Of a stretch of DNA of 64,000 bases, positions 22,067 to 44,335 are shown in pieces. Below the pieces are notes generated by a model. It did not search any database, was not told where the DNA came from, and was given only the letters and a program-made list of their open reading frames with translations. The stretch lies in NCBI GenBank assembly GCA_048887225.1, contig JBHLJY010000005.1, positions 32,001-96,000 of the forward strand, in the 5' to 3' direction. The position numbers were made by a program, and so were the translations under genes. The DNA comes from Candidatus Hodarchaeota archaeon. Its GTDB lineage: Archaea; Asgardarchaeota; Lokiarchaeia; Sigyniarchaeales; SOKP01. The stretch's first letter is position 1. Every line of letters begins with the position of its first letter.

Positions 22067-23125
22067 ATGAAAAAGACTTTAACACCTAAAGAAATCAAGC
22101 AATATAAAAGACGCCAAATTGGCAGATTAGCAATTGCTGCGAAACAAGCCAAGGAAAGTGGAGGGAAACCATTTATTTTTCATTTTCTTACAACTCTAAA
22201 ATGCAATTGTAATTGCGAAAGTTGTTTTTGGAAAGATAATGCTGTTAAAAATGAGTTAACCTTAGACGAAATTAAACGAATTTATTTAGAAGCTAAAGAT
22301 TCTGGGTTTTTACTCTCTATATTATGGGGCGGAGAGCCTACGCTACGTAAAGATATTACAGAAATTATAAAATTTGCGAAAAGAGAGGCGAATTTCGCGT
22401 TTATTGGGATGGTTACAAATGGATATTTACTTCCTAAGAGAATTCACGAGTTTGGAGATGATTTAGATCTGATTTTATTATCTCTTGATTCTCCAAGAAG
22501 AGAAGAGCATGACGAAATTAGGGTTTTACCAGGTCTCTACGATAAAATCATGGAAGCTGTAGATATCATTAAGGATGAGTTTCCTTTTATATCGTTACAG
22601 TTTAGTTTCTCTATTAGCAAGTATAATATTTATCGAGTAGAAGAAATGATTGCCTTAGGTGATAAGTTGGACGTTCCTATAGCTTTCAACGTAATTAATA
22701 TTATGCGCCATTATTCTATAGGTGTTGTTGATGAAAAAGAAGTACTTGCTGCAGGTAGCGATGAAATTAGTAATTCATTTTCAAAAATTTTGGAGGCTAA
22801 AAGAAATGGTTCAAGGATTTTATGTTCAGAAATGTATTTAAAACACTTCATCGGAGGTAAAAAGCCTTATCGATGCCATGCTAAAAAGGTGTTCATGTTT
22901 GTCAACTCTAATGGAGATATTGAAAACTGCCTCCAATTAGACAAACCAATTGCAAACTTAAGAGAAATTTCTGTTAAGGAAGTTCTCGAATTACCACGAT
23001 TTAAAAAATTCATTAAGGATACTGAAAACTGTTGTACTTGCAATTCTCCCACCATGATTGATACAAGTTATATTTGGGAAGATTTTACTCTGTTGTCTAA
23101 AGCGGGAGGAATTTCTTTTGGTTAA
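22067..23125 (+). CDS. Radical SAM protein with a C-terminal SPASM/twitch-like Cys cluster
   Basis: CNCNCESC, GGEP, TNG; C-terminal CHA..GDIENC..CCTC. Confidence 0.9.
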   Translation: MKKTLTPKEIKQYKRRQIGRLAIAAKQAKESGGKPFIFHFLTTLKCNCNCESCFWKDNAVKNELTLDEIKRIYLEAKDSGFLLSILWGGEPTLRKDITEIIKFAKREANFAFIGMVTNGYLLPKRIHEFGDDLDLILLSLDSPRREEHDEIRVLPGLYDKIMEAVDIIKDEFPFISLQFSFSISKYNIYRVEEMIALGDKLDVPIAFNVINIMRHYSIGVVDEKEVLAAGSDEISNSFSKILEAKRNGSRILCSEMYLKHFIGGKKPYRCHAKKVFMFVNSNGDIENCLQLDKPIANLREISVKEVLELPRFKKFIKDTENCCTCNSPTMIDTSYIWEDFTLLSKAGGISFG

Positions 23126-23371
23126 GATTTAATAAGTAAGTAAAAAAGAATGAAAAATATAAAAAAAATAAAAGTAAAGTGCCTAAATCGTCGAATTGAA
23201 GAATTTATTTCATCAAAATTGATAATTTTTTGAAATAAAAAGATTTTAGAAGGTGAATATCCAATTGAGAATTATAAATATTAATAAATTCTAAACAATT
23301 GTTTATCTATATTATTTTAATAGAATTCAATACACAGTATTGTATAACCATAACTTAAAAAATTGAAAAAA

Positions 23372-24499
23372 ATGATGAAAATAGAAAAATTGCCCAAAGA
23401 ATGCGAAGAATACATGACTCCTAAGGAAAGAATCTTAGGTCTAATAATGCGGAAAAAACTGGATAGGATACCGGTTTTTCCATTTGTTTCTGCCGCTGCA
23501 GCACAATTACTTAACCTTAATTATGGAGAATATGCACAAAAGCCGGATTTGTTTTTACGTGCTCAAATTGAAGCTCAAAAATTATTTGGTTATGATGCGA
23601 TTACTGCGATGCCAGATTTATGCGTTGAAGCACAAGGTTTTGGAGCGAAAATAATTTACCCTACTAACAACGCAGCATATCCAGATCCATATCATCCTGT
23701 TATTAAGTCTGCTGAAGAATATAAGAATATTGATAAATTGTTTGATTGGTCTCACGCAGATAGAATGAAAAATCAACTAAAGGTTGTAAGTACTATAAAT
23801 GAACAATTACCCGATATGATGATAGGTGGAATGTCTATAGGTCCACTAGGACTTATTTCTAGATTAAGAAATATTAATGATTTTGTGCGTGATTTTATTC
23901 ATCATCCTGATAAAATTCATGAGGCTGCAGAAAAAGTAACTGATATTCAAATTGAATATATAGAGAAACAAATTGAGGCAGGAGCCAAGACAATAATGCT
24001 ACCAGTTGTTTTAGCTGAGAGAGAACTGATGAGTAAAGAAATGTGGTTAGAATTAGATATGCCTTACCAACAGAGGATTGCTAAATTTATCAAGAGAAAA
24101 AGGGCTCTATATTGTATACATACATGTGGTCGTGGTCCTTATTTCGATCTTTTAATTGAACACCTTAAACCTGTTCTTATCCAGAATGCTTTTTTACCAG
24201 ATGGTGTTAAAACCGAAGAGGAAATGATTGAAAAATACGGTAAAAAGTTAGTATTCTTAGGCTTTCTAAGTGTTGCATTGCTTGCTTGGTCAACTCCGAT
24301 GGAAGTAATAGCAGAATGTAAAAGAGAACTTGAAGTTTTTGGGAAATCTCCCGCAGGATATTTACTTGGAGCATCGTGTGAATATCCTCCATACGCTCCT
24401 TTATACAACGCACTGGCGGTGGTAAAGGCTGCTAGAATGTACGGTGCTAATTTTAAAACTGGAGAAGGACCGAATTACATAGAGGAGGGTGCAACCTAA
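23372..24499 (+). CDS. UroD-fold methyltransferase (MtaA/CmuA/MtsA family)
   Basis: MTPKERI, DRIPVFP, DLCVEAQGFG, HTCG and GASCE Zn-ligand motifs. Confidence 0.85.
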   Translation: MMKIEKLPKECEEYMTPKERILGLIMRKKLDRIPVFPFVSAAAAQLLNLNYGEYAQKPDLFLRAQIEAQKLFGYDAITAMPDLCVEAQGFGAKIIYPTNNAAYPDPYHPVIKSAEEYKNIDKLFDWSHADRMKNQLKVVSTINEQLPDMMIGGMSIGPLGLISRLRNINDFVRDFIHHPDKIHEAAEKVTDIQIEYIEKQIEAGAKTIMLPVVLAERELMSKEMWLELDMPYQQRIAKFIKRKRALYCIHTCGRGPYFDLLIEHLKPVLIQNAFLPDGVKTEEEMIEKYGKKLVFLGFLSVALLAWSTPMEVIAECKRELEVFGKSPAGYLLGASCEYPPYAPLYNALAVVKAARMYGANFKTGEGPNYIEEGAT

Positions 24500-24501
24500 A
24501 A

Positions 24502-25140
24502 ATGTCAAGAGAAGAAATTTTGGAAAAACTAAAGAATAGTGTTATAGATTGCGATGAAGAGATGGCAAAGGAAGCTGCCAAAGAAGCGTTAGAGGCAGGA
24601 ATAGACCCGATGAATGCTTTAAAAAAGGGGCTTTATATAGGTTTGAAAGAAGTTTGCAAGCAATATGAAGAAACTGTCTATATAACAGAAATGATATTTG
24701 CCACAGATACATTTTATGCGGGCGCTAACATATTAAAATCAAGTATAGATCCTGAAAAATTAAAAAAACATAGAAAAGGTATTGCTGTAATTGGTGTTGT
24801 TGAAGGAGATATTCACGATCTTGGTAAAAATATGGTAAAGTATCTAATGGAAGCAGAAGGTTTTGAAATTCATGATTTAGGATTTGACGTAAAAGCAGAG
24901 AGATTTATAGAAGAGGCAGAAAGATATAATGCAGATCTGATTTTAATCTCATTGATGTTAAGTTCAATGTATCCACAAATAAGTAAAATCGTCGAATTAG
25001 CAAAAGAAAAAGGTTTGAAAGCAAAAATAATGGCTGGTGGAGGACCAGTTTCAGAGGGAATCGCTCAAAAATATGGCGCAGACGGATGGGCTCTGACTGG
25101 CCCCTTAGCTGTTGAAAAAGCTTTAGACTTACTTAAATAG
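24502..25140 (+). CDS. Corrinoid (B12-binding) methyl-carrier protein, MtaC/MtbC-like
   Basis: EGDIHDLGKN (DxHxxG), SLML, GGGPVS, GADGW; 2 bp after the methyltransferase. Confidence 0.93.
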   Translation: MSREEILEKLKNSVIDCDEEMAKEAAKEALEAGIDPMNALKKGLYIGLKEVCKQYEETVYITEMIFATDTFYAGANILKSSIDPEKLKKHRKGIAVIGVVEGDIHDLGKNMVKYLMEAEGFEIHDLGFDVKAERFIEEAERYNADLILISLMLSSMYPQISKIVELAKEKGLKAKIMAGGGPVSEGIAQKYGADGWALTGPLAVEKALDLLK

Positions 25141-25181: not shown

Positions 25182-26609
25182 ATGCTTATAACACCCACTA
25201 AAATTTATGAAGATTTTAGGAATAATATTTTAGATAAACATTCCGCTGTTGATATTTTAATCTCATTAATAGAAAATAGTAAAAATAATATCATAAGAAC
25301 TGAAAGCATTGGAATTATTGATGAAATTGGATATAGACACGATAAAATCTTTAAACTTTTTGAAAACTTATTAATATCAGATTCGAATAAAGGAGTTAGA
25401 ATTGCTGCTGCTAATGCAATTTATAAAAATTTTTTAGGTAAAGCATTAAGTCCAATGATGTGGACAATTCTTAATGAAACATCATTAGAATGTTTAAATA
25501 TAGTTAAAAATTCTTTAACCAATATAATAAAAACATTGTTAGAAAGAGATGATAGCTTCTCTAAAGCAATCCTAATTAAAGAAATAAAGAAGATATCTAA
25601 TCAAAAATTTAACGATAACTTATACGATCTGATTAATGACGGGCAAATTAAAGAATTTTCAAGCAAAGAATTAGCTCAAGTGTTAATTGATTACATTACA
25701 ATTTCATTTTTAAAAAAACAATTCCAAAGATTAAATTTTGAGTTAGAAAATGGAATAGTTAAAAAATTAGATTTAAGATTTAGATATTATAACAAATCCT
25801 CAGAGTTAATATCACCTTCTTCTCCTTTAATAATTCCGATTATAAAAACCAATGAATTAGATACTCAAGCAGGATCAATTATTCCTCTTTCTTCTTGTAA
25901 AGAACTACATTTAAGTTATAATTCTTTAAAAGAATTTCCTAATTGGATAAAATCCCTTTCTTCTCTTGAATCTATATTTTTACATGGAAATAGATTAACT
26001 GAACTTCCAGATTGGATTGGTTCTCTCAGTTCACTTAAAAAAATAGGATTATCTGGAAATAATTTATCATCGCTCCCTAAATCTTTATTAGATCTTAGCT
26101 CACTTAGATATTTGGGGGTGAGTGATAATCATCTTAAATATGTACCCGAATGGTTAGGATCGCTTACTTCGCTTGAAAGATTATGGTTAGATAATAATCA
26201 TATTTTATCTCTTCCTGAGTCGCTTAAATCGCTTTCTTCGCTTAAATCTCTCTATTTAGGAAATAATAATTTAAAGATCCTTCCTGAAATTTTTGAGTCA
26301 TTTAATTCTCTTAAGGCTCTATGGCTGGAAGGGAATAAGATAGAAAAACTCCCTGAATCAATAGGTTCTCTTTCTTCCCTTGAATATCTGTATTTAAATG
26401 ATAATAAGATAAATGTCCTTCCAAAGTCAATAAGTAAGCTTTCTTCGTTGAAATTTTTACATCTTAATAATAATATGCTGATGAAAATTCCAGAATCGTT
26501 AGAACATCTCTCCTCTCTTAAAGAGATATGGTTAAAAGGTAATAATTTAAAGGAAATTCCTGATTCTGTAAAAGAATTGAAAGAAAGGGGGATTTCAGTT
26601 TATATATAA
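25182..26609 (+). CDS. Leucine-rich repeat protein with a HEAT-like N-terminus
   Basis: About ten 23-aa repeats LxxLxLxxNxLxxLPxxI/L; VRIAAANA HEAT-like segment. Confidence 0.9.
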   Translation: MLITPTKIYEDFRNNILDKHSAVDILISLIENSKNNIIRTESIGIIDEIGYRHDKIFKLFENLLISDSNKGVRIAAANAIYKNFLGKALSPMMWTILNETSLECLNIVKNSLTNIIKTLLERDDSFSKAILIKEIKKISNQKFNDNLYDLINDGQIKEFSSKELAQVLIDYITISFLKKQFQRLNFELENGIVKKLDLRFRYYNKSSELISPSSPLIIPIIKTNELDTQAGSIIPLSSCKELHLSYNSLKEFPNWIKSLSSLESIFLHGNRLTELPDWIGSLSSLKKIGLSGNNLSSLPKSLLDLSSLRYLGVSDNHLKYVPEWLGSLTSLERLWLDNNHILSLPESLKSLSSLKSLYLGNNNLKILPEIFESFNSLKALWLEGNKIEKLPESIGSLSSLEYLYLNDNKINVLPKSISKLSSLKFLHLNNNMLMKIPESLEHLSSLKEIWLKGNNLKEIPDSVKELKERGISVYI

Positions 26610-28702: not shown

Positions 28703-30223
28703 TTAAGGACTATGAGGATGTTGTTCCATTTTTATATTTACTGGCCTCAAAGATCCAATTGCCCAGCCCGTTAATTCATTGAGAGACGGATGAATTATCA
28801 TAGAATGGTAAATCGGCATAAATGATCCCCCTTCTGGACAAGCTCGAGCTATTTTAGGAAGATCTCTTTCCTCAGAATATTCGGGCAAAACGCATGAAAA
28901 ACCAGCGTTCATTAAATAAACGAAAGGTTGAACTAAAATCGCAGCATGGGGGCCTACAACATGAGCGCCTAAAATTCTATATGATTTATCAACGATTAAC
29001 TTTACAAAACCATCGTCCTCCTTGTTTTCTTCAAAACCCATTGCGAAACCTTTAGCAACAGAAGAATAATGGTTTATGGCAACAAATATTTCATGCCCTT
29101 TATCAATTGCTTCTTCTTGAGTCATGCCAACATGTCCAATTTGTGGATAGGTAAAAATCGCCCAAGGAACGGAGGAATAATCCACTGATTTGCGTTGTTC
29201 TTCCGGACCAAATATATTATTAGTGCATATTTCTGCCTCGTAATTTGCCTTATGACGAAATTGATAAAGTCCATTAGCATCGCCTAAACACCAAATATTT
29301 TTTTTGTTAGTTTCCAAATAGTTATCAGCTTTAATCCACCCTCGTTTATCAGTTTCAACACCTGTTTTTTCTGGTTTTAACCAATCGGTGTTTGAACGAC
29401 GTCCTGTTGCCACCAGAATCTCTTCAGCGTTAATCTCTTTTTTTTCACCAGTTTTTGTATTTTCAATCGTTACAACTTTTAAATTTCCTTTCTTACTTGC
29501 TTTGATCGCTTTATAATTAACTAGGACCGTCATAAATTTTTTAAAATTATTTTCGAGAAAAGCGCTTATTTCAGGCTCCTCAGTAACAACTAATCTAGGT
29601 AGCATTTCTACTATTGTAACTTCAGTTCCAAAGGCAGAAAAAATATGTGCAAATTCGGCAGCAATAACACCTCCACCAATTATTATAAGGCTTTTCCAAG
29701 GTTTCTTTGGAAAGTTTTCTCCAAAAAAGCTCTCGTTAGTAATATAGCCAACTTTTTCTAAGCCCTCTATTGGAGGAACAAATGAACGAGCACCAGATGC
29801 AATGATAAATATTTTTCCTTTAAACGGTTCAGAATAACCAGATCCGTCGTTTAACTTGATTTTCATTTCATATTCTCCAGTAAATTCTCCAATTCCTCTA
29901 TACATCGTTAGGTTAGGAACGGTAGATAACTCTTCTTCCATTTTTTTACTTTCGTCAATATGCTCCCACATTCTTTTTGAAATTAAATCCCATTCAATTT
30001 TCTTTAAATCAAATTGAATTCCAACATTACTCGCGTGCTGAGCTTCCCTAATCATATCGGCAGGATAAACTAAAATTTTCGAAGGGATACATCCTCGTGT
30101 TAAACATGTAGCTCCAATTTTGTAATCTTCTATAAGAGCACATTTCAATCCCTTTCGGAGCCCAGTATTTAAAACGCTTAATCCAGCGCCACTCCCAATA
30201 ACTACTAAATCGTAACTTTCCAT
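28703..30223 (-). CDS. Class I pyridine nucleotide-disulfide oxidoreductase (dihydrolipoamide dehydrogenase/mycothione reductase-like)
   Basis: GSGAG, TCLTRGCIPSK, GGGVIAAE, HPSLNE. Confidence 0.9.
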   Translation of the reverse strand: MESYDLVVIGSGAGLSVLNTGLRKGLKCALIEDYKIGATCLTRGCIPSKILVYPADMIREAQHASNVGIQFDLKKIEWDLISKRMWEHIDESKKMEEELSTVPNLTMYRGIGEFTGEYEMKIKLNDGSGYSEPFKGKIFIIASGARSFVPPIEGLEKVGYITNESFFGENFPKKPWKSLIIIGGGVIAAEFAHIFSAFGTEVTIVEMLPRLVVTEEPEISAFLENNFKKFMTVLVNYKAIKASKKGNLKVVTIENTKTGEKKEINAEEILVATGRRSNTDWLKPEKTGVETDKRGWIKADNYLETNKKNIWCLGDANGLYQFRHKANYEAEICTNNIFGPEEQRKSVDYSSVPWAIFTYPQIGHVGMTQEEAIDKGHEIFVAINHYSSVAKGFAMGFEENKEDDGFVKLIVDKSYRILGAHVVGPHAAILVQPFVYLMNAGFSCVLPEYSEERDLPKIARACPEGGSFMPIYHSMIIHPSLNELTGWAIGSLRPVNIKMEQHPHSP

Positions 30224-30331
30224 AATTTCAATTTATCTATATCCCTTTTAAAGTTTATATTAATGCTTTAAAAATTTTTTATGAAAAAATTTTTAATGGA
30301 AGAAGAAAATAACAAAAAAAGAGAGTAAACA

Positions 30332-31261
30332 TTAACCTTTAATTACTTCAACTAGTTTTGGAAAAATTCTAGTGTAATGTACAGCCATACAATGGACACC
30401 AGCTAGTAAATTTTTCGCTTTTAGCTCAGATATGATTGGTTTAAAAAATTCATAATTTAATTGGTCGTACATACGCTTTTGTTCAGCTTTATCAGGCATA
30501 TCATTCTTAACGCTTTTCCATTTAGCAAGAATTTCTTTTGGCACGTCAACACCAGGAACAAACATATCAAATCCTTTCGCAATACCATAACTTTTCATTG
30601 GAAAGATCCCTAAAAACAGAGGAACATTATATTTTTTAATTGCTTCTAAAAATTCTATTGTCATATCAATATCGTAAACAACTTGAGTTTGTATGAATTC
30701 TGCTCCCGCTTCAGCTTTTCTTCCTATTTTTAAGATTTCTGCTTCCATTGGATCTGCGTTTGGATTAGCCGCAGCACCAACATGCATGGTAGGCGGATGT
30801 TCAATTTCATTAGCGTTAATTTTTCCAGTATCTACCATTTCTCTTACGAGCTTGACCAACGTTGCGGAATCAAGATCAAAAACAGGTTTTGTTTCGGGCA
30901 TATCCCCCATATTTGGATGGTCGCCCGTAAGAGATAATATATTACGCAAGCCTAAAGCATGAGCGCCCATAATCTGCCCAGCTAAACCTAGTTTATTACA
31001 ATCTCTAACGGTTAATTGCCATACGCATTCTAGTCCAGTTTCTCTCTGAATTATATGGGACGCTGCCATGGAATTAATTGTAACGATTCCGAGTGGACTG
31101 TCAGTCACATTAGCAGCTACTACGTATGGAGCCATTTCTTTCGCTTCTTGAATAGTGTGAGAAAGATCGCAAGTCTTTTCAGGTTCTAATTCTCCAGTTA
31201 AAACGAATTCTCCTTTAGCAATCTTCTCTCCCAGTTTTGAATATATCTTTTTCTCCGCCAT
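30332..31261 (-). CDS. metF: Methylenetetrahydrofolate reductase (copy 1)
   Basis: GELEP, NVTD, TVRDCN, LTGDHP, DLDS, GAEFIQTQ. Confidence 0.88.
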   Translation of the reverse strand: MAEKKIYSKLGEKIAKGEFVLTGELEPEKTCDLSHTIQEAKEMAPYVVAANVTDSPLGIVTINSMAASHIIQRETGLECVWQLTVRDCNKLGLAGQIMGAHALGLRNILSLTGDHPNMGDMPETKPVFDLDSATLVKLVREMVDTGKINANEIEHPPTMHVGAAANPNADPMEAEILKIGRKAEAGAEFIQTQVVYDIDMTIEFLEAIKKYNVPLFLGIFPMKSYGIAKGFDMFVPGVDVPKEILAKWKSVKNDMPDKAEQKRMYDQLNYEFFKPIISELKAKNLLAGVHCMAVHYTRIFPKLVEVIKG

Positions 31262-31278
31262 TTATTAATCTACTCCAC

Positions 31279-31950
31279 CTATCTAAATAATACTTCTCTC
31301 TGATGTCCAGAATCGGTCCAGTTCCTGGGAACCCTAAGTTTACTAAATAAGTCTAACCTTCCCAATTCCTTTAATCGATTAAAAATCAAAATCCACCCAC
31401 AATCCCTTTCATAATTTCCAACTTCACATTTGCCAGCGACCATCCCTCCGCAAGGTCCATTCATTAATGCTTTAGCGCAAGTTGTTATGGGGCATATTCC
31501 TCCAGTTTCATTTAAGAGACAATCTCCACAACCTAAACAGCGCATTCGAAACCTACCGATTCTTTCCGTCATTCCCATAAATTGTGTATTATTGGTTACA
31601 AAGACTTTTTTATTTGGATGTTTTTTACTAAGTACTTGAACTATTGATTGAACCCCAAGACCGCAACTTAATGTTAGAATCGCATCTGCTTTTTTCACCG
31701 ATTCGTCAATTTTTCTTAAATCCTTCATCATAACCCTGTTATCACATACATCTTCTGAAACTACACCTTCTATAATCTCAAAACTTTCATTCTCTAATAT
31801 CTGAGTCCATTCTTTTAAGCCTTCAGTTCCACCCGTCTGACAAAGGGCAGCACATGATCCACAAGAAACAATAACGAGTTTATTAATCCCGTTTTCGTTT
31901 AACACGTTAATAACATCCTCAACCGGCTTTTTGGTTGTTATTACTACCAT
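31279..31950 (-). CDS. metV: MTHFR Fe-S/Zn subunit MetV (copy 1)
   Basis: CGSCAALCQTGG, SCGLG, CLGCGDC, CPITTCAKALMNGPCGG, CEV, CGW. Confidence 0.88.
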   Translation of the reverse strand: MVVITTKKPVEDVINVLNENGINKLVIVSCGSCAALCQTGGTEGLKEWTQILENESFEIIEGVVSEDVCDNRVMMKDLRKIDESVKKADAILTLSCGLGVQSIVQVLSKKHPNKKVFVTNNTQFMGMTERIGRFRMRCLGCGDCLLNETGGICPITTCAKALMNGPCGGMVAGKCEVGNYERDCGWILIFNRLKELGRLDLFSKLRVPRNWTDSGHQREVLFR

Positions 31951-36076: not shown

Positions 36077-36535
36077 TTAAGGCACACTACCATTTTGTGA
36101 GACTGTTTTTATTGGTTTTAAAACTACGCAAACTCTTTCAACACTTTCAATGTCAGTTCTGGCGCGAAACGCTTCTATTAAAGCGTCCAACTCATTAGTG
36201 TCAGGTACATTTACTTTTATTAATACACCGCACCTCCCATCGAGCTTATATACTTCTTCACATTGCGGAAGTATTATAGTTTCTCTCAATAATTCCTTTA
36301 TTTGAGATTCGTTTTTTGGAATAAGAGTAATAAAAGCATAAATACATCTTTCATCTTCACGACAAATTTTAATTGTAAATTTCTCAATTATTCCTCCTTC
36401 TTGTAAGCGAACTACCCTCTTTCTCACTGTTGATTCAGATAACCCTATTTCATCGGCAATCTCACGATATGGCCTTCTTGCATCCTCCAGAAGCATTTCA
36501 ATAATTTTCTTGTCTTTATCGTCTAGGTTTTTCAT
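36077..36535 (-). CDS. Lrp/AsnC transcriptional regulator
   Basis: LDDKDKKII..DARRPYREIA..GLSESTVRKRV. Confidence 0.92.
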   Translation of the reverse strand: MKNLDDKDKKIIEMLLEDARRPYREIADEIGLSESTVRKRVVRLQEGGIIEKFTIKICREDERCIYAFITLIPKNESQIKELLRETIILPQCEEVYKLDGRCGVLIKVNVPDTNELDALIEAFRARTDIESVERVCVVLKPIKTVSQNGSVP

Positions 36536-36599
36536 TCTTTTTTTTCTATTCGGATTTTATTATTTTCATAAATTAAAAAAAAAAATATGTTTTATTACA

Positions 36600-37538
36600 T
36601 TAAAAATCTTTTAATAGAGGTCCAAAAAGTCTTTCATAATGGACAGCCATACAATGGATTCCAGCTGCTTTAGTGGTTTTCCTTATTTCGTTTATAAACG
36701 GCAGAAAGAAATCTATGTTAATTTGATCAATCTTGGCATTTCGCTCTTTTTTGTTCTCAATTTTTTTTGCGGATTTTAATTTTTCCAAAAGATCCTTTGG
36801 AACACTCACACCAGGTATGTATTTATCAAAGTACCAAGCAATACCATAATTTTTCAAAGGAAATAAGCCTAATAACACAGCAACATCATATCTTTCTAGC
36901 TCTTTTAAGAATTCTTTTGCTTCATCGATATTAAATGCCGTTTGCGTTTGAATAAAATCGACGCCCGCTTCAACTTTTCTTCCTACTTTAAGGATCTCGG
37001 GCTCAAGGTATGGTGGGCGTGCATTTGGATTTGCAGCACATCCAATATTCATTTTAATTTTATCACCTTCGATTTCTTTGCCTTCCAAGTCAGTACCCTC
37101 ATCGACTATTTTTGACACCAATTCAATGAACTGTGTACTATCCAAATCATAAACGGGTCTAGCGTTTTTATTATCCCCTAACGCCGTATGATCACCAGTT
37201 AAAGTGAGGATATTCTTAAGTCCAAGGATTGCACCTCCAACAACATCGCCAAATAAGGCAATTCTATTCCTATCTCTCACAGTCATCTGCCAAATTGCTT
37301 CTAACCCTACTTTTTCTTGAACCAAGTAACTTGGTACCATTGAGCAAGTATATGCATCTCCTTGTGGACCGTCAGTTACATTTGCAGCTACAATCTTTCC
37401 AGTTTTTTTCATTTCTTCAGCGGAATGTAAAACTGAACTGATATCGTACATCTTTGTGGGTTCTAATTCTCCAGAAAAGACAAATTTTCCAGCTTTTATC
37501 TCTTTCATCAAATTGCTATATGCAGGTCTCTTTACCAT
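36600..37538 (-). CDS. metF: Methylenetetrahydrofolate reductase (copy 2, in the hdr operon)
   Basis: GELEP, NVTD, TVRDRN, LTGDH, DLDS, GVDFIQTQ; ATG overlaps the metV stop (TAATG). Confidence 0.88.
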   Translation of the reverse strand: MVKRPAYSNLMKEIKAGKFVFSGELEPTKMYDISSVLHSAEEMKKTGKIVAANVTDGPQGDAYTCSMVPSYLVQEKVGLEAIWQMTVRDRNRIALFGDVVGGAILGLKNILTLTGDHTALGDNKNARPVYDLDSTQFIELVSKIVDEGTDLEGKEIEGDKIKMNIGCAANPNARPPYLEPEILKVGRKVEAGVDFIQTQTAFNIDEAKEFLKELERYDVAVLLGLFPLKNYGIAWYFDKYIPGVSVPKDLLEKLKSAKKIENKKERNAKIDQINIDFFLPFINEIRKTTKAAGIHCMAVHYERLFGPLLKDF

Positions 37539-38236
37539 TATTTTTTCTCCTCATTTTTTTCTTCTTCTTCGTTAGTATACGGTTTATTAATCACATAGTA
37601 TGCTGGACTCGTAGCAGGTCTATAATTTCTTGGTGGCCGGTATTTATTAAAGAGATCCAATCTATTAAATTTCTTTAATCTCTCATAAATTCCAATCCAA
37701 GCACAAGGACGAGTATATCCTCCAACCTCGCACATTCCATCAACAGTACCTCCGCAAGGTCCGTTATTTAAATGCTTAGCGCACCCTGCAATAGGACAAA
37801 CGCCTCCTGTTTCTCCTAATAGACAACTCCCACATGTTTCACAGTATTGAATGAAATAGTTTTCTCCTGCGTTTTGAACACCACCACACATGCTATTTTG
37901 GGCTGGGTATGTTATAATGTTTTCAGCTACTTTATTTAGCATCACAATACCTAATCCACACGCTAACGATACAATTGCGTCGTACTCTTCTATAAATGGT
38001 CGTATCGTGGTAGCAGCAATTCTATCGTCGCATTGCCTTAAAATAGTGATTGCTCTCCATTTTAGCTTCTTTCCTTCGGTTTTTGCTTTTAGTTCCAATA
38101 ATTGTCCAAGTACTTTTGCTTCATTAATCGATCGCGGAGGCTGACAACAGTCATCACAGCCGGTTATTAAGATTTTTGAATATGGTCTTACCATATTGTA
38201 TATTTCATCAATATCTTTTAATTCTGTAATAATCAA
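37538..38236 (-). CDS. metV: MTHFR subunit MetV (copy 2)
   Basis: GCDDCCQP, RQCD, ACGLG, CETCGSC, CPIAGCAKHLNNGPCGG; TTG at 38236 or GTG at 38248 as start. Confidence 0.87.
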   Translation of the reverse strand: MIITELKDIDEIYNMVRPYSKILITGCDDCCQPPRSINEAKVLGQLLELKAKTEGKKLKWRAITILRQCDDRIAATTIRPFIEEYDAIVSLACGLGIVMLNKVAENIITYPAQNSMCGGVQNAGENYFIQYCETCGSCLLGETGGVCPIAGCAKHLNNGPCGGTVDGMCEVGGYTRPCAWIGIYERLKKFNRLDLFNKYRPPRNYRPATSPAYYVINKPYTNEEEEKNEEKK

Positions 38237-38301
38237 CTTTATGCACACTTTTTTCTTTAAATTTTTGAGTTTTATTTTATGTTTTTAAGAAAAGATTATT
38301 A

Positions 38302-39189
38302 TTATGTTTTTATATTCAGTTTTTCCAATAGTTTTGTAGGTTTCACACTTCTATTTGATAAACCTAAAATTCCGACATCGATACCAAAAGCTAATGCTAT
38401 TAATTCAGGTAAGTAAAGTATAGGGATATCAAGCTCTTTATCAATTTTTCTTGAAATCAATTTTTCCTTTCTGTCATACTGACTCACGCATGCTGGACAG
38501 ACAGCAACCATAACATCTACTTCTTTTTCAAGTTCTTTCAAGTCAGTCATTTTTTCTTCAACTAATTTAAATCCAATATCTTCATTTAATCTAGCACAAT
38601 ATCCACAACATTCTAATTTAGCTGCAAAGGCAACAGTCGTAGCTCCTAAAGTTTCTAAGATCAGATCCATTGTTTCTGGTCGTTCAGGGTGGTCAAATCT
38701 CAGAATTTTACTTGGTCTTATTAAATGGCATCCATAATGTGCAGCAACATTAATATCATCTAATGGGTGCATAATAGCCACTTTAATTTTATCAAGCATA
38801 TCTGGTCTACTAAATAATTCAACAAAATGCGTAACTGTTGATGTTCCTTTATATTCATATCCAATTTTCTTTAAAACAGAATTGACTTTATCAAATGCAG
38901 CTTTATCTTCTTTTAGAAGGATATGGGAAGTTTTAAGTGTTTCAAAGCATCCTGAACAAATTGTCAAGACATCCAAACCCATTCTTTCAGCTATTGATAA
39001 ATTTCTCGCAGCGATGGTTAACCAAGTATCAACGCTTAATGATTGGGTTGCTACAGGGTCAGGGCAACAGCTAGCACCGTGCATCTCTTTTAAGTTAATA
39101 TCTAAAATACTAGCAATCTCCCTGAATGCTTTTTCAAAATGCGGAAACCGAAGTGGGATTGTACATCCTAAAAATAATGCGAATTCCAT
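38302..39189 (-). CDS. hdrB: Heterodisulfide reductase subunit B
   Basis: FLGC, SCCP, CSGC, HYGCH, ECCG, CPAC (two CCG domains). Confidence 0.93.
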   Translation of the reverse strand: MEFALFLGCTIPLRFPHFEKAFREIASILDINLKEMHGASCCPDPVATQSLSVDTWLTIAARNLSIAERMGLDVLTICSGCFETLKTSHILLKEDKAAFDKVNSVLKKIGYEYKGTSTVTHFVELFSRPDMLDKIKVAIMHPLDDINVAAHYGCHLIRPSKILRFDHPERPETMDLILETLGATTVAFAAKLECCGYCARLNEDIGFKLVEEKMTDLKELEKEVDVMVAVCPACVSQYDRKEKLISRKIDKELDIPILYLPELIALAFGIDVGILGLSNRSVKPTKLLEKLNIKT

Positions 39190-39725
39190 TATTTTTCATC
39201 CTCCATTTCTTTTTTTATTATATTTTCAAGTCCAGTTTCTTTTATTATGAAAGTGATATCATCAAGATTTGGTGGTTCTACAATAGGTAAGCCAAATTTT
39301 TCTCTTCTTCGATCAATGGTTTTCTTTAATCCCCCGTGATATGGGACAACAAATCCATTGTCGTTAATTACTTTAATCGTATCACTGTATTCTGATGGAA
39401 TATTTCCTTCTTTGACAGCTAAATTCCTTATTAAAGCTAAAATAAAAGAATAATCTACGCCTTTTGGACATCTTTCAGTACATCTATGACAAAGAGAACA
39501 AGTCCAGATTGCGTTACTTGATAAAATAACATCCTTTAGACCTAACAAGAGTGAAGCAACGACTCTATGAGGTTGCAAATCTATAAATTCTGATACTGTA
39601 CATCCAGAGCTACACACACCGCACTGAATACATTTCAATAAAGATTTTGCACCAACTTTATTGCTAATTTCATATCTCAAATCATGGTCTAATTCTTTTG
39701 AACTCATAGTTTTTTCTTCATTCAT
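39189..39725 (-). CDS. hdrC: Heterodisulfide reductase subunit C
   Basis: CIQCGVCSSGC, IWTCSLCHRCTERCP; stop overlaps the hdrB ATG. Confidence 0.92.
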   Translation of the reverse strand: MNEEKTMSSKELDHDLRYEISNKVGAKSLLKCIQCGVCSSGCTVSEFIDLQPHRVVASLLLGLKDVILSSNAIWTCSLCHRCTERCPKGVDYSFILALIRNLAVKEGNIPSEYSDTIKVINDNGFVVPYHGGLKKTIDRRREKFGLPIVEPPNLDDITFIIKETGLENIIKKEMEDEK

Positions 39726-39727
39726 TT

Positions 39728-42700
39728 TTAAGCTCCCTCCTTAGCTTCTTCTTTTTTTTCAATTTTATCACCCCTTTCGGCAATTGGCCCTAATTCTTTC
39801 ACCTTGCCAATAAAATCGGTAATAACTTCAGAAAATCGCTTTCCTTCGCTGGCTGAGACCCATTCAAGACGATATCTCTCGGGATTAATTCCAACTTTTT
39901 CAAGGATTTCTTGAATTTCATTATATCGTCGTAACATATCGTAGTTACCTTCCAAATAATGGCAATCTCCAATATGACAGCCTCCAACAAATACTCCGTC
40001 AGCACCTTCTAGAAATGCTCGCAATATAAAACTTTTTGGAATTCTTCCAGTACACATTACTCTTATAGGCCGAATATTTGTTGGATATTGAAATCGACTT
40101 ACACCACACGTGTCTGCTCCAGCGTAACTACACCAATTACAAAGGAAAGCAACAATTCGTGGTCTTTCATCAATAAATTCTCCTTTTAATGCTTCAGAAA
40201 TCATTGGTGTCAATTGATCATCTGCGAAATGACTCATAGTAATCGCCCCTGCTGGACATGCCGCAGAACAGTCACCACATCCTTTACACAATAGTGGGTT
40301 TGATTCAGAAACTAATTTTTCGTTATCAAAATTGACGCCTATAGCTCCAAAATTACAAACCTCTTCACATTTTTGACAAGCAATACATAATGAGGGATTA
40401 ACAACAGAAACTAGCGGTTCATTTTCGACTATACCTGAAATTAATGGTATTAAAGCGTGAGCGGCAGCACCCCTTGCCTGAGATATCGAGTCTGCGATAC
40501 CTTTTGGGCCATGAGCAGTCCCAGCAAGATAGATCCCATCTGTTGCAAAATCAACTGGTCGTAATTTAACATGAGCTTCCAGAAAGAATCCATTTTGATC
40601 ACGTGGTACTTTGAGTAACTCTGAGAGTAATTTGTTATCATATGGTTTCAATGGTGTTGATAATACAACTCGATCAGCATCAATATTAAGTGTAACTTGG
40701 GTCAAAATATCCTTTACTTTAACATTGATTTTTCCATTAGTAAGTTCTACTTCAGGGTATTCATTAAATCTTATATAATTGATATTTTCTCTAGCTTGCC
40801 AATAATAAGGTTCTTCATCAGTCCCAACACGAATATCTCTGTAAAGTACATAAACATTAGATGTTGGATAATTTTCTCTCACATATAACGCGTGTCTAAT
40901 AGATTCAGAACAACAGATTAGAGAGCAATATGTACATCCATTGACTCCTTCTGGTTGTCTCGAACCGACGCAATGAATAAATACTATTTCCTCCCCACCT
41001 TTTAATTCATTATCCTTTAATTTCTCAGATAATTCTAATTGCGTCATTATACGAGGATCTTCACCATAATGATACCAACCTACTGGTTTATATTCATAAG
41101 CACCTGTCGCAACGACAATTACACCAACATTTAAATCTGCAATTTTGTTATTAACATTATTTTTAACTTTAATATTGAAATTACCTATTGAACCTTTAAC
41201 ATCTGAAACTTCAGAATTTAAATAAGTTGAGATATTTTTTATTTGATTATACTCATTAAGTTTTACATCTAAATATTCTTTGGAATCTATCCGATCAAAA
41301 TTAATCATATAGATAAGGTTTAGTTGACCACCTAATTTATCATCTTTTTCAATTAAATGAACCTTATATCCTTTATTCGCAATTTCCATGGCTGCCGTCA
41401 ATCCAGCAATACCACCGCCAATAACTAATGCTTCAGGGACTACATCTCCTTTTATTTTTAATTCAGGTCTTAAAAATCTTGTACGTGCAACGCCCATTCG
41501 AATTAGATCTTTTGCCTTATCGGTTGCTTTTTTGTGTTCATTCATATGTACCCATGAATCTAACTCTCGAATACTTACAAAATTAAAAAGATATTCGTTC
41601 AAACCTGCCTCTCGTATAGTTTTTTGAAATAATGGCTCGTGTGTTCTTGGAGTGCACGCAGCAACTACTATTCGATTTAAATCCAACTCTTCAATCTTTT
41701 CCTTTATAATATCTTGAGTCAAACTCGAACAACTATATTTATTGTGCATAGCAAACATTACATCAGGAAGAGTTTTTGTATATTCTACTATTTCTGGAAC
41801 GTCCATATATCCACCAATATTTACACCACATTCGCAAATAAATACACCAATTCTTGGTTTATCACTTTCATTGACTATTTTCAATGGAGGCAATTCAACT
41901 CTTTGTTCTTCTTCGCTTAATGGTTCCGCGTGAAGGGCTGCTAATGCAGCAGCTCCACTGGCTTTAGCTACTGAATTAGCTATATCGTCAGGGGATTGAC
42001 AGCATCCAGTTACGTAAATACCTTCTTGAGTAGATTGTAAATCTTCAAGGGAATTTTTTGTTTTAAAAAATCCTAACTCGTTTGTTTCTATTCCTAAGAT
42101 TTTTGCTAATTGCTCGCTATCTCTTCGAGGAATTACGGCACTTCCCAACACTACTAAATCAAATCTGCTTGTTTCTACTTCACCAGTGTCTAAATTTGCG
42201 TGCTTAACTAATAGATCGCGAGTTTCTGGATCTTCTCGTACATCACCAGGAATCCCGTGATAATATTTTAACTCATACTCATCTTTCGCTCTTTCAATAA
42301 ATTCTTCTTGATTTTTTCCAATTACTCTAGTATCGTTGAAAAAAATCGTAACGTTCGTATCTGGAGAATGTTCACGTGTTACAACTCCCTCCTTCGCCAT
42401 ATACATACAACAAAACTTTGAACAATATGAACATAGTGATTCATTTCGGGATCCGACGCATCCAATAAATGCAATTTCGTGTGCATGTTTTTGATCCGAT
42501 GGTCGCAAGAGTTCACCTTCCGTTGGACCAGAAGCGCTCAATAGCCTTTCGTATTGCATTGATGTGATAACATTAGGATATTCATCATAATGGTAACGAG
42601 TCAAAACACTAGGATCTAAAATGTCAATTCCTGTAGCGATAATAATAGAGGCAACATTATATTCTACAACCTCATCTTTCATGTCCCATACTATAGCACC

Positions 42701-43213
42701 AGCCTCGCATTCTTTTTCACAGAGCTGACAGGCATTTTTTGTTAAATATAAGCATTTTTCTGGATCTATAGTAGCTTTACGTGGGACGGCTTGTGGAAAT
42801 GGTATGTAGATTGCTTTACGGTTACCCATCCCTTCTTCAAATTCCGAAGGAATTTTTTTCATAGGACATTTTTCTACACATGCACCGCAGCCTGTACATT
42901 TTTCAATGTCTACATATCTAGATTTCTTTAAGATCTTCACGTTAAAATTACCAGCTTCCCCTGTTACTTCTTGGACTTCCGAATAAGTCAAGAGTTCTAT
43001 ATTAGGATGACGAGCGACCTCAACCATTTTGGGAGCCAAAATGCAAATGCTACAGTCTAAAGTGGGAAATGTCTTATCTAATTGTGCCATTCGCCCACCA
43101 ACACTTGGAGTTTTCTCAACTAATATAACTCGATATCCTTGTTCACCTAAAGACAGAGCTGCTTCGATACCACTGATACCTCCGCCAATAATTAAAATAT
43201 TACTATTAGTCAT
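39728..43213 (-). CDS. hdrA: Tandem HdrA-HdrA-ferredoxin-MvhD fusion flavoprotein
   Basis: GGGISG and GGGIAG FAD motifs, LDKTFPTLDCSIC, CVGSR x2, ACTPRTHE; C-terminal MvhD (FLCNWCSYAGAD, MCTGR, GCHIGDCHY, WVSASEG). Confidence 0.94.
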   Translation of the reverse strand: MTNSNILIIGGGISGIEAALSLGEQGYRVILVEKTPSVGGRMAQLDKTFPTLDCSICILAPKMVEVARHPNIELLTYSEVQEVTGEAGNFNVKILKKSRYVDIEKCTGCGACVEKCPMKKIPSEFEEGMGNRKAIYIPFPQAVPRKATIDPEKCLYLTKNACQLCEKECEAGAIVWDMKDEVVEYNVASIIIATGIDILDPSVLTRYHYDEYPNVITSMQYERLLSASGPTEGELLRPSDQKHAHEIAFIGCVGSRNESLCSYCSKFCCMYMAKEGVVTREHSPDTNVTIFFNDTRVIGKNQEEFIERAKDEYELKYYHGIPGDVREDPETRDLLVKHANLDTGEVETSRFDLVVLGSAVIPRRDSEQLAKILGIETNELGFFKTKNSLEDLQSTQEGIYVTGCCQSPDDIANSVAKASGAAALAALHAEPLSEEEQRVELPPLKIVNESDKPRIGVFICECGVNIGGYMDVPEIVEYTKTLPDVMFAMHNKYSCSSLTQDIIKEKIEELDLNRIVVAACTPRTHEPLFQKTIREAGLNEYLFNFVSIRELDSWVHMNEHKKATDKAKDLIRMGVARTRFLRPELKIKGDVVPEALVIGGGIAGLTAAMEIANKGYKVHLIEKDDKLGGQLNLIYMINFDRIDSKEYLDVKLNEYNQIKNISTYLNSEVSDVKGSIGNFNIKVKNNVNNKIADLNVGVIVVATGAYEYKPVGWYHYGEDPRIMTQLELSEKLKDNELKGGEEIVFIHCVGSRQPEGVNGCTYCSLICCSESIRHALYVRENYPTSNVYVLYRDIRVGTDEEPYYWQARENINYIRFNEYPEVELTNGKINVKVKDILTQVTLNIDADRVVLSTPLKPYDNKLLSELLKVPRDQNGFFLEAHVKLRPVDFATDGIYLAGTAHGPKGIADSISQARGAAAHALIPLISGIVENEPLVSVVNPSLCIACQKCEEVCNFGAIGVNFDNEKLVSESNPLLCKGCGDCSAACPAGAITMSHFADDQLTPMISEALKGEFIDERPRIVAFLCNWCSYAGADTCGVSRFQYPTNIRPIRVMCTGRIPKSFILRAFLEGADGVFVGGCHIGDCHYLEGNYDMLRRYNEIQEILEKVGINPERYRLEWVSASEGKRFSEVITDFIGKVKELGPIAERGDKIEKKEEAKEGA

Positions 43214-43678
43214 TATTCTTCAATTTTCAATTTTTGAAATAATTCTCTTATAATTTGATTGATATTGATACTATTTTCTCAAATTAATAATCATTTTTGA
43301 AAATTCTTATTAAGTTTAAAAACATATAAATTTTTATTATCTAATTATTACCAAATCATTTAAATATTTTACTAAAAATGACTGAAAACGGAAGATTATA
43401 TGAATTTCAAATCAGAAGAAGTAGATTTTCGATCAAGTATTTTTAAAAGAATTAGTAAAAATAACAAATTATTATCTTTAATTGTTAATATATGAAAATG
43501 ACAAAAAAATTACTGTTTGGTTCATTTTTTAAGAAAATTCTCTTTTTAAAATTAATTTTTTGTTAAAAAACCGATATTAATAATAAAGAAAGATTATAAA
43601 CTATTAATTTTAATAATATATTTAACAAGAAAAAACAAAATTTTTATTGAGCTATATATAGATTTTTGGTGATTTGGA

Positions 43679-44335
43679 ATAAAGATTGTAGTAACGGGAG
43701 CGTCACAATGCGGAAAATCAAGTTACTTAAATTATTTTGATAAAAACTCTTTGAATGTACAAGTAGGAGGGAAAACTATTGCGATGGACGTAGCTAGCAT
43801 AAATTTCAATGGATTTCAAATAACATTGTTCGGCACGCCTGGTCTCGCACGATTTAAAGTAATGAGAAAGATTATTTCAAATGGAGCTGATGGAATCGTT
43901 TTTATTTTTGATGCTACAAATCCCGACTCCGATAATGATGCTATATCAATATTGAGAGAAATAATAAACCCAAAAGCTCCAAAAGTTTATTTAGCTAATA
44001 AGCAAGATTTGATGGGAGCACGCTCACCCGCAGTGTTGCAAGCTCAAAATAAATTACCTAAAGATTGTAAAATTTTCCCCTCAAGTATAAAAACTGGACT
44101 TAATATAAAAGAATCTTTAAAATATTTAGTGGGTGAAATATTTAAAAAATACAAAAAACTTATACAAATTCTCTGCAATTATGAAACTAACATTAGAGGA
44201 CTAGCAGAAAAATTAGGTAAAAACAAAAGTCAGATGCGTGACTTTTTATATTATTTGGAAATTAGACGATTTATTATAATTGACCGAGTTAATAAGGTAT
44301 ATAGAGTTAATAAAGCCTTAAAAAATATAGTTTAA
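43679..44335 (+). CDS. Small GTPase (MglA/ATP_bind-like) with a C-terminal wHTH-like domain
   Basis: The P-loop KIVVTGASQCGKS lies upstream of the tracked TTG 43751 in the same frame; FGTPGL, NKQD; probable ATA start at 43679. Confidence 0.85.
   Translation: MKIVVTGASQCGKSSYLNYFDKNSLNVQVGGKTIAMDVASINFNGFQITLFGTPGLARFKVMRKIISNGADGIVFIFDATNPDSDNDAISILREIINPKAPKVYLANKQDLMGARSPAVLQAQNKLPKDCKIFPSSIKTGLNIKESLKYLVGEIFKKYKKLIQILCNYETNIRGLAEKLGKNKSQMRDFLYYLEIRRFIIIDRVNKVYRVNKALKNIV

Follow-up and report, generated by a model that had tools for sequence, protein, structure and literature searches.

How do Asgard archaea that lack the F420-dependent methylene-tetrahydromethanopterin reductase Mer close their tetrahydromethanopterin (H4MPT) Wood-Ljungdahl pathway, and how is methylene-pterin reduction energetically coupled in reductases of the Hdr type? 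Both questions are raised by a gene cluster, hdrA::mvhD-hdrC-hdrB-metV-metF-lrp, at positions 36077-43213 of a 64,000-nucleotide stretch of contig JBHLJY010000005.1 from a Candidatus Hodarchaeota archaeon (the window; the genome carrying it is G000, with an assembly 98% complete). A first-pass annotation of the window had taken the cluster for a six-gene operon encoding a bacterial acetogen-type, electron-bifurcating methylene-tetrahydrofolate reductase. The locus combines this gene content with intact cofactor sites and conserved synteny, and its genome encodes a Mer-less H4MPT pathway. We lean towards reading it as an archaeal Hdr-type MetVF methylene-tetrahydropterin reductase that would bifurcate electrons via HdrA::MvhD and HdrBC and cover the Mer step together with, or alternating with, plain MetVF.

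Gene content and conservation of the Hdr-MetVF locus

The cluster consists of the following genes:

39728-43213, minus strand: double hdrA fused to mvhD (hdrA(double)::mvhD), 1161 amino acids (aa); NCBIfam HdrA2 1187 bits, Pfam FlpD 179 bits
39189-39725, minus strand: hdrC, 178 aa, two CxxCxxCxxxC motifs; TIGR03290 91.7 bits, under the curated cut-off of 160
38302-39189, minus strand: hdrB, 295 aa, two PF02754 domains; TIGR03288 277 bits, under the curated cut-off of 345
37538-38248, minus strand: metV (DUF5981), 236 aa as listed; PF12225 at 6e-28
36600-37538, minus strand: metF (MetF1), 312 aa, methylene-tetrahydropterin reductase catalytic subunit; PF02219 (MTHFR) at 2e-29
36077-36535, minus strand: lrp/asnC-family regulator, 152 aa; PF13404 and PF13412 above their cut-offs

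The six co-oriented open reading frames are thus present as first described, with identities assigned by Pfam and NCBIfam; for the Lrp regulator, PF01037 scored 24.8 against a cut-off of 25, and the top NCBIfam match, LysM, was under its cut-off. The tight junctions were found as well: hdrA and hdrC are separated by 2 bp (TAA-AA-ATG), hdrC/hdrB and metV/metF overlap as TAATG, and at each of the three a GGAGG-like ribosome-binding site lies within the upstream gene. The hdrB-metV gap measures 53 nucleotides (nt), or 65 nt if metV begins at TTG 38236. In a 41-row alignment that includes the window, 35 of the 40 aligned orthologues begin at the position of this TTG (35 rows being gapped at window residue 2), and the listed GTG (38248) is probably four codons too early, the true MetV then starting at TTG 38236 and comprising 232 aa. 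Neither a [NiFe] hydrogenase nor mcr is encoded within the window, in agreement with the first-pass annotation.

Conservation was assessed in a phylum survey of 400 species-level genomes and in the window's own Asgard family (135 genomes), to which all family counts refer. MetF1 has 1358 homologues; among the 120 matches listed, all are at least 77% identical, and those that carry a name are all Asgard metagenome-assembled genomes (MAGs) labelled Thor-, Loki-, Hod-, Odin- or Promethearchaeota. MetF1-type orthologues (at least 64% identity) occur in 114 of the 400 phylum genomes, 111 of these within the family, and the cluster is found in most genomes of this large sediment lineage. We took 20 kb around 40 MetF1 matches, 30 of which are family loci. 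In all 30 family loci, from at least nine genera, a double-HdrA::MvhD gene stands directly upstream of metV-metF, and lrp lies downstream of metF in nearly all orthologous loci. Two layouts were found, the window's own (layout A, hdrA::mvhD-hdrC-hdrB-metV-metF-lrp) and a second one (layout B), which reads hdrC-hdrB-hdrA(double)-[hdrA(double)::mvhD, ~49% identity]-metV-metF-lrp. The linkage is also present in four genomes of other Asgard families (L046, L047, L048 and L050), in L050 (G397:C12:53440-62816) in the reversed order metV-metF-hdrA::mvhD-hdrC-hdrB. It is therefore kept at every orthologous locus examined, and the concern that it might be unique to this assembly does not hold.

A wider scan of species-representative genomes, with a 12-sequence MetF alignment as query, gave 79 named loci (no Moorella or Sporomusa genome was returned) and revealed MetVF-Hdr pairing also in Bathyarchaeia, Fraserbacteria, Acetothermia/Bipolaricaulota, Thermodesulfatator, Anaerolineae and Dehalococcoidia. 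Outside layout A, it is the MvhD end that adjoins metV upstream, in 28 loci from Asgard archaea, other archaea and bacteria, and any Hdr-related gene other than hdrB that adjoins metV does so with this end, which fits MvhD as the contact of MetV. Several lineages carry a ferredoxin-MvhD protein alone with MetVF, with no HdrBC nearby. One contig labelled Pirellulales (L066, CAYTTK010000009.1), and so binned as a planctomycete, bears two metVF pairs of archaeal type, and its HdrA::MvhD-hdrC-hdrB set shares 51% identity with that of the window; the contig probably resembles Bathyarchaeia and was mis-binned.

Cofactor sites of the double HdrA and its partners

The fused HdrA::MvhD protein can be divided into the following parts:

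aa 1-430, 41924-43213, minus strand: HdrA half 1, thioredoxin-reductase-like (TrxR-like) FAD module 1, without N-terminal domain
aa ~100-175, 42689-42916, minus strand: inserted ferredoxin domain of half 1, Pfam Fer4 at 100-173
aa 451-590, 41444-41863, minus strand: N-terminal-type iron-sulfur (FeS) domain of half 2, with C460, C462, C495 and C520
aa 595-935, 40409-41431, minus strand: FAD module 2 of half 2, with a GGGIAG motif and FeS ligands C748/C763/C767/C768
aa 937-993, 40235-40405, minus strand: C-terminal ferredoxin domain, two CxxCxxCxxxC motifs, Pfam Fer4_9/Fer4_21
aa 1017-1148, 39770-40165, minus strand: MvhD/FlpD domain fused to HdrA, PF02662 at 5e-53 and PDB MvhD chains at 1e-50

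Compared with the solved methanogen HdrA (5ODC, 8RVU), these pieces are out of canonical order, and the PDB matches fall into three pieces. Half 1 aligns with 5odc_A residues 145-511 (416 bits), HdrA residues 5-376 being ~60% identical to the TrxR/FAD and inserted ferredoxin region of the methanogen protein (counted from the printed alignment); residues 451-609 match the HdrA N-terminal FeS domain (5odc_A residues 2-160, 184 bits), and residues 871-1005 correspond to the end of the FAD domain together with the C-terminal ferredoxin domain (5odc_A 512-646). Within half 1, a DCSIC motif contains C54 and C57, the latter equivalent to Cys197 of 5ODC, and the FAD-domain FeS ligands are C252/C264/C268/C269. 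E222 and K274 correspond to E356/K409 of methanogen HdrA, a Glu/Lys pair that serves as the mark of bifurcating flavins in HdrA (PMC9430772). Electrons leave the methanogen enzyme for ferredoxin by way of the inserted ferredoxin domain (PMC9012536, PMC9430772); in the window protein this domain retains eight cysteines (C106, 109, 112, 116, 154, 162, 165, 169) for two [4Fe-4S] clusters, invariant in 34 of 34 orthologues. FAD module 2 is more divergent than module 1 in an internal alignment of the halves; it has neither a Cys197 equivalent nor an inserted ferredoxin domain and carries S729/R773 at the Glu/Lys positions. Among the 34 MetVF-linked orthologues, 10 have Glu and 13 have Lys at these two positions, and the 13 orthologues below 60% identity are those of layout B and from outside the family. 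In the layout-B HdrA::MvhD (~49% identical; L017:5333-8791, L031:5339-8800), FAD module 2 appears to carry the Glu/Lys bifurcation signature, as reported for Moorella.

Across the 34 MetVF-linked orthologues, the FAD motifs, C57, the E222/K274 pair and the cysteines of the inserted ferredoxin, N-terminal-type and C-terminal ferredoxin domains are all invariant, as are the five candidate [2Fe-2S] ligands of the MvhD domain (C1025, C1028, C1054, C1079 and C1084). Both the gene set and the domain pattern match the Hdr type proposed at first, and every one of these orthologues retains the flavin signature of the bifurcation type as well as the inserted ferredoxin domain. For fused HdrAs and the Moorella HdrA, a complementarity of Cys197 and the N-terminal domain has been described (PMC9012536). 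The window HdrA fits this pattern, with the Cys197 equivalent in half 1 and the N-terminal domain in half 2; judged by its residues, the double HdrA is predicted to hold a single complete bifurcation circuit. Besides the two FAD folds, Pfam and PDB alignments revealed no GltD/NAD(P)-binding insert. HdrA forms that bear such an insert (L110, L116) measure 1483-1641 aa, versus ~1010 aa for the window HdrA without MvhD. Because the GltD-type insert is lacking, NADH is unlikely as donor.

The cofactor sites of the partner subunits are likewise intact. The 26 HdrC sequences compared all have C32/35/38/42 and C76/79/82/86. In HdrB, the two CCG motifs, of the form CX(31-39)CCX(35)CXXC, are complete (C9...C41C42...C78xxC81 and C154...C194C195...C231xxC234), and their cysteines do not vary among 29 sequences. 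MetV has twelve invariant cysteines in the 41-row alignment, and a PDB search found no homologue of it among solved structures. With 34-row alignments, a complex prediction that paired MetV with residues 1010-1161 of HdrA::MvhD (the MvhD domain) reached 0.28/0.21, the mark being 0.32; it gives no verdict and is used neither for nor against a contact.

Elsewhere in G000, eleven further MvhD/FlpD copies and at least four double-HdrA genes are encoded. Two in-frame TGA codons occur in each of four of these eleven MvhD/FlpD paralogues (C16:30595-30960, C1:307500-307868, C8:59816-60184 and C1:229491-229856), which are candidate selenocysteine proteins.

The missing Mer step and competing readings of the cluster

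That this genome lacks a canonical F420-dependent Mer was borne out by a TIGR03555 search: the cut-off is 349 bits, whereas the best match in G000 reached 152, and all four matches to the Mer model are luciferase-like F420-family paralogues (C21:32002, C9:12939, C6:94921 and C16:44288). Canonical Mer is absent from all 134 other family genomes (0 of 135 overall) and from the 19 genomes of three sister families in the order; it is present in 77 of the 400 phylum genomes. Mch is found in 130 of the 135 family genomes. G000 itself encodes CdhC of CODH/ACS (CO dehydrogenase/acetyl-CoA synthase), two Ftr, Mch, an F420-dependent Mtd and RFAP synthase for methanopterin synthesis; in the whole genome, neither Fhs (formyl-tetrahydrofolate synthetase) nor McrA was found. 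With Ftr, Mch, Mtd, RFAP synthase and CODH/ACS present and Fhs absent, the genome points to methylene-H4MPT rather than a folate as substrate. MetF1 therefore likely acts on methylene-/methyl-H4MPT, and methylene-tetrahydrofolate (methylene-H4F), the substrate suggested at first, is not supported by this genomic context.

Where both enzymes occur, they can be neighbours. At L050 in genome G397, metV-metF-hdrA::mvhD-hdrC-hdrB is succeeded by two canonical mer genes of the same strand, and in G002, G004 and G128 mer lies 3-4 kb from metVF. At L050, Mer and Hdr-linked MetVF are thus co-located and not mutually exclusive.

The ancestry of MetF1 was examined in a tree of 95 MetF sequences (quick IQ-TREE, LG+C20), in which Moorella, Sporomusa and Methanosarcina are not represented. 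MetF1 falls within an Asgard clade (support 100, n=22) whose members are all Hdr-linked. A second Asgard-only clade (support 100, n=17) holds two further MetFs of this genome, MetF2 from the window and MetF3. Both Asgard clades lie in an archaeal assemblage with sequences from Bathyarchaeia and from Methanosarcinales/"Methanobacteriota" MAGs, ANME-like ones among them (support 81-88), and the bacterial Hdr-linked MetFs fall inside a separate 12-member clade (support 100). Forcing MetF1 together with the bacterial clade made the tree 81 log-likelihood units worse (approximately unbiased (AU) test, p = 0.0024; groups named after inspection of the tree). MetF1 is 35-40% identical to the sampled bacterial MetFs (a sample without S. 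ovata and M. thermoacetica), and the window HdrA is ~40% identical to bacterial MetVF-linked HdrA, against ~60% to methanogen HdrA over residues 5-376. MetF1 thus belongs to the archaeal MetF group; the deep assemblage is weakly supported, and the separation from the bacterial clades is strong. The label of a bacterial acetogen-type complex consequently holds for the architecture and fails for the ancestry. A recent bacterial transfer of the whole unit is not supported by the MetF tree, the constraint test and the ~40% identity of HdrA, and we rejected that reading.

From these features we infer how the subunits would form a physical complex, and by which electron path, on which substrates and in which direction it would work. 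MetF, a flavoprotein, would interconvert methylene- and methyl-pterin, and MetV, a Cys-rich Fe-S/Zn subunit, would wire it to the MvhD fused to HdrA. By homology with the methanogen complex (PMC9012536), MetF-MetV would take the place of MvhAG and exchange electrons with the fused MvhD. The double HdrA would fold as its own asymmetric 'heterodimer', in which half 1 would bring the Cys197-type ligand and, with E222/K274, the bifurcating FAD, besides the inserted ferredoxin domain; half 2 would add the N-terminal FeS domain along with the C-terminal ferredoxin domain and MvhD. One branch would pass via the N-terminal-domain cluster, completed by C57, and the inserted ferredoxin domain on to ferredoxin, the other via the FAD-domain cluster, HdrC and HdrB to a disulfide. 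In this way the two-electron methylene/methyl-pterin couple would be linked to ferredoxin and to a disulfide/dithiol couple at HdrB, with H4MPT as the most likely pterin and the enzyme standing in for the absent F420-dependent Mer. The methylene/methyl-H4MPT couple (about -320 mV) lies at the mean of ferredoxin (about -500 mV) and the heterodisulfide (about -140 mV); because these H4MPT midpoint potentials balance, reversible bifurcation would be feasible in either direction. The more specific proposal, a flavin-based bifurcating MetVF-HdrA::MvhD-HdrBC complex with reversible coupling to ferredoxin and a thiol/disulfide pair, is put forward tentatively and may well not hold in this full form. 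Were it true, the methyl branch itself would be an energy-coupling site.

How the genes are transcribed bears on this proposal. The regions concerned are:

43214-43750: hdrA 5' intergenic region, 537 nt, AT-rich, common to a divergent small Ras/Arf-like GTPase gene
38249-38301, minus strand: hdrB-metV spacer, AT-rich; the window copy shows just TCTTTTCTT, in contrast to the T-run of most orthologues
36575-36585, minus strand: T11 run, 15 nt after the metF stop, within the 64-nt metF-lrp gap

The hdrA promoter presumably lies in the 537-nt region. Directly after the hdrB stop, 17 of 21 layout-A orthologues have a run of five to eight Ts (T5-T8), followed by an A/T-rich stretch and often GGAG before metV; the whole spacer measures 53-117 nt among orthologues. 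The T-run may act as an archaeal terminator or attenuator, with an internal promoter behind it. Likewise, the metF-lrp spacer contains a T-run of at least five in 18 of 21 orthologues, and the T11 run of the window is a likely archaeal transcription terminator, for which reason lrp probably has its own promoter; Lrp would then be a linked regulator, probably transcribed separately. Oligo-T tracts are archaeal termination signals, though they are common at 31% G+C, and the G+C of the window is ~31% throughout. A scan for sigma-70 promoters and hairpin terminators gave nothing above shuffled sequences, these models not being applicable to archaea. With T-runs after hdrB and metF, up to three units (hdrA-C-B, metV-F and lrp) are possible. 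The description as a six-gene operon was therefore too strong, as the junctions are tight only within hdrA-C-B and metV-F. For comparison, a single transcription unit has been shown for the Moorella cluster.

Two further MetVF pairs complete the three of this genome. The second, metV2-metF2 (30332-31950, minus strand), lies 5 kb from the MetF1 cluster and is followed by a gene for an Lpd-like pyridine-nucleotide-disulfide oxidoreductase (28703-31950 for the whole set). MetF2 is 48% identical to MetF1. An Lpd-like gene stands within 7 kb on the same strand in 9 of the 17 sampled members of the MetF2 clade, most members of which either have such a gene behind them or stand alone; the MetF2-Lpd set may be an NAD(P)-linked counterpart of the Hdr-linked pair. 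The third pair, with a MetF3 82% identical to MetF2, is located on contig C12 (G000:C12:13314-23423, L002) and flanked by sets reading hdrB-hdrA-mvhD and hdrC-hdrB-hdrA on the opposite strand; an Lpd-like gene occupies C12:25070-26413.

Several observations weigh against the reading of the cluster as a bifurcating stand-in for Mer. The two additional MetVF pairs could fill the Mer gap, and a highly divergent Mer could be hidden among the luciferase-like paralogues. In genus g6, which belongs to the same family and is represented by 4 genomes (89-100% complete), both Mer and the MetF1-Hdr cluster are missing; its loci (L148-L150, from G158, G161 and G159) carry only MetF2-type MetVF, with no Hdr or Lpd gene within ~8 kb. 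Because g6 has only plain MetVF, the Hdr-linked copy is not the sole or necessary Mer substitute. Conversely, Mer and the Hdr-MetVF cluster occur together in G128, G129 and G397. G000 has no Mcr/CoM-CoB system, McrA being absent, and one FolD is encoded, so folate-bound one-carbon (C1) units are possible. Finally, the T-runs after hdrB (17/21) and the 53-117-nt spacer permit separate transcription of hdrACB and metVF. The Hdr-linked MetVF is more likely a redox-partner-specialised version than the sole Mer substitute.

Among the alternatives, the one that survives best, though we regard it as unlikely, is a wiring as in Sporomusa, with MetVF behind HdrC/HdrB as the high-potential acceptor. A separately encoded donor would then dock on the fused MvhD; it could be a hydrogenase of the MvhAG type or an F420H2 dehydrogenase of the FrhB type. 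FAD-1 would bifurcate its electrons to methylene-pterin and ferredoxin, and HdrB would be a relay instead of a disulfide reductase. H2, at -414 mV, lies near the mean of ferredoxin and methylene-H4MPT, and besides the eleven MvhD copies the genome encodes three large subunits of [NiFe] hydrogenases, which are found on C12 and C35 and not on the contig of the window. Layout A indeed has metV directly after hdrB, and Kremp et al. model the path HdrA to HdrCB to MetVF, HdrB having pulled down MetF (PMC9430772). However, among the genes of the window no donor is linked to the cluster, the MvhD end rather than HdrB adjoins metV in the 28 loci of other layouts and lineages, MetVF pairs with ferredoxin-MvhD in the several lineages with no HdrBC nearby, and both HdrB CCG disulfide-site motifs are strictly conserved.

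We give less credence to the idea that there is no joint complex at all, that is, a plain MetVF dependent on ferredoxin (type II, like that of Clostridium ljungdahlii) beside an Hdr operon for another reaction, the two being transcribed and used separately. The T-runs and AT-rich, promoter-like hdrB-metV spacers in most orthologues would suit this idea, MetVF works without Hdr in other organisms (PMC8515935, PMC9430772), and genus g6 and the MetF2 clade have MetVF without Hdr. Against this, the two remain adjacent in 30 of 30 family loci and at least nine genera, across layouts A and B and the reversed order of L050; moreover, the MetF1 clade is distinct (support 100) with 22 of 22 members Hdr-linked, and the same pairing recurs in bacteria.

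Slightly less probable still is an anabolic folate enzyme whose methyl-H4F would go into methionine or other methylations, with Lrp exerting amino-acid control and Hdr giving low-potential electrons. Such a role could account for the syntenic Lrp/AsnC regulator and for FolD, and at a distance of 12-15 kb the window encodes a radical SAM protein along with a URO-D-type methyltransferase and a corrinoid protein; in addition, MetF/MetV of Methanosarcinaceae act on H4F for biosynthesis (PMC9012536). Against it stand the absence of Fhs from the genome and of a folate gene cluster from the window, the family-wide lack of Mer beside a retained H4MPT branch, and the outfit of three MetVF pairs plus a bifurcation-grade Hdr module, more than a small biosynthetic flux would call for. 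By the description in PMC9012536, MetF1 also groups with the ANME-1/Bathyarchaeia type and not with the Methanosarcina folate type, Methanosarcina itself not being in our tree. A methanogen-type CoM-S-S-CoB reductase is rejected, as the genome has no McrA and its hydrogenases are on other contigs.

Other genes of the window were noted as well. The three genes 12-15 kb away form a row at 22067-25140 on the plus strand (radical SAM protein, URO-D-family methyltransferase and B12-binding corrinoid protein, the last two genes 2 nt apart), adjoined by an open reading frame at 20851-21909 with no Pfam match; the row may be a methyl-transfer module supplying C1 units to the same pathway as MetVF. The small Ras/Arf-like GTPase (43751-44335, plus strand), divergent from hdrA, and a leucine-rich-repeat protein (25182-26609, plus strand) belong to eukaryote-like signature families typical of Asgard genomes.

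Comparison with known Hdr-type systems

Hdr-type MTHFRs are an established and partly characterised kind of enzyme in bacteria (PMC9430772, PMC6085437), and metF-for-Mer substitution in archaea is likewise in print. The MetF-MetV of ANME-1, Ca. Syntrophoarchaeum, Bathyarchaeia and Asgard archaea has been proposed as a Mer substitute in Mer-less H4MPT genomes (PMC9012536; PMC10322722), a setting shared by the window. In Syntrophoarchaeum genomes, metFV is clustered with hdrA and mvhD, and Asgard sequences were previously placed in the archaeal MetF group (both PMC9012536); ANME-1 metF, in contrast, is reported as without the hdrA linkage seen in the window. Recent Asgard papers treat metF as a partial folate branch or as an expressed MTHFR (PMC12222021, PMC11291895). 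In the open literature searched, we found no paper that describes the hdrA::mvhD-hdrC-hdrB-metV-metF-lrp layout of Asgard archaea or reports it as nearly universal in one family, and, apart from PMC9012536, none that brings MetV together with Asgard archaea. The novelty implied by the first-pass annotation is accordingly reduced, archaeal MetF-for-Mer and MetFV-HdrA-MvhD clusters being published already (PMC9012536). To this our analysis adds the family-wide pattern of Mer absence and Hdr-MetVF, the retained ferredoxin-exit domain, the adjacency of mer elsewhere and the counter-example of g6. Knowing the substrates would sharpen metabolic models of eukaryogenesis, which now count Asgard metF as a partial folate branch (PMC12222021).

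Methanogen MvhADG-HdrABC (5ODC, 8RVU) shares the cofactor sites of MvhD, HdrB and HdrC, all of which are kept in the window. Whereas methanogen HdrA is a homodimer, the window HdrA is a fused asymmetric pseudo-dimer; the cluster lacks MvhAG, with MetVF standing where the methanogen cluster has its hydrogenase genes, and because Mcr is absent from the genome, CoM-S-S-CoB has no obvious role.

The Moorella thermoacetica MetFV-HdrABC-MvhD complex of Mock et al. 2014, as relayed in PMC9430772 and PMC9012536, has an HdrA of 1487 aa that includes a GltD-type NAD(P)H module and bears the Glu/Lys pair in both FAD modules. The defining feature of this NADH-oxidising subtype, the GltD-type insert, is not found in the window HdrA. 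In clusters of uncultured bacteria (Fraserbacteria L103, Acetothermia L126 and Thermodesulfatator L132), the double HdrA has the identical Cys and Glu/Lys pattern including the inserted ferredoxin domain in half 1; MvhD and then metV-metF follow directly downstream, MvhD being a separate gene, unlike in the window.

The same six functions as in the window cluster are combined in the Hdr-type (type IV) HdrCBA-MvhD-MetVF of S. ovata (Kremp et al. 2022, PMC9430772), whose MetVF interacts with HdrA, HdrB and MvhD in pull-downs (PMC9430772). Its HdrA has the same order of parts, TrxR1 (with the Glu/Lys pair), N-domain, TrxR2 and C-terminal ferredoxin (PMC9430772), and, like the window HdrA, it carries the bifurcation signature in only one FAD module and no GltD/NAD(P)H insert. 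The two differ in gene order (hdrCBA-mvhD-metVF in S. ovata, hdrA-C-B-metVF in the window) and in MvhD, which is encoded separately in S. ovata and fused to HdrA in the window. The inserted ferredoxin domain, kept in half 1 of the window HdrA, is reported as missing in S. ovata and M. thermoacetica (PMC9430772). S. ovata further offers a cytochrome/quinone context (PMC9430772), while the window host is an archaeon with an H4MPT pathway and no such context. The Asgard version lacks an NADH module, keeps the ferredoxin-exit domain and the HdrB disulfide sites intact and has MvhD fused to HdrA, all of which makes it well suited for a clean test of the energetic coupling of Hdr-type MTHFRs, and if the bifurcating complex proposed here is real, Asgard C1 metabolism would be wired unlike that of both methanogens and the characterised acetogens.

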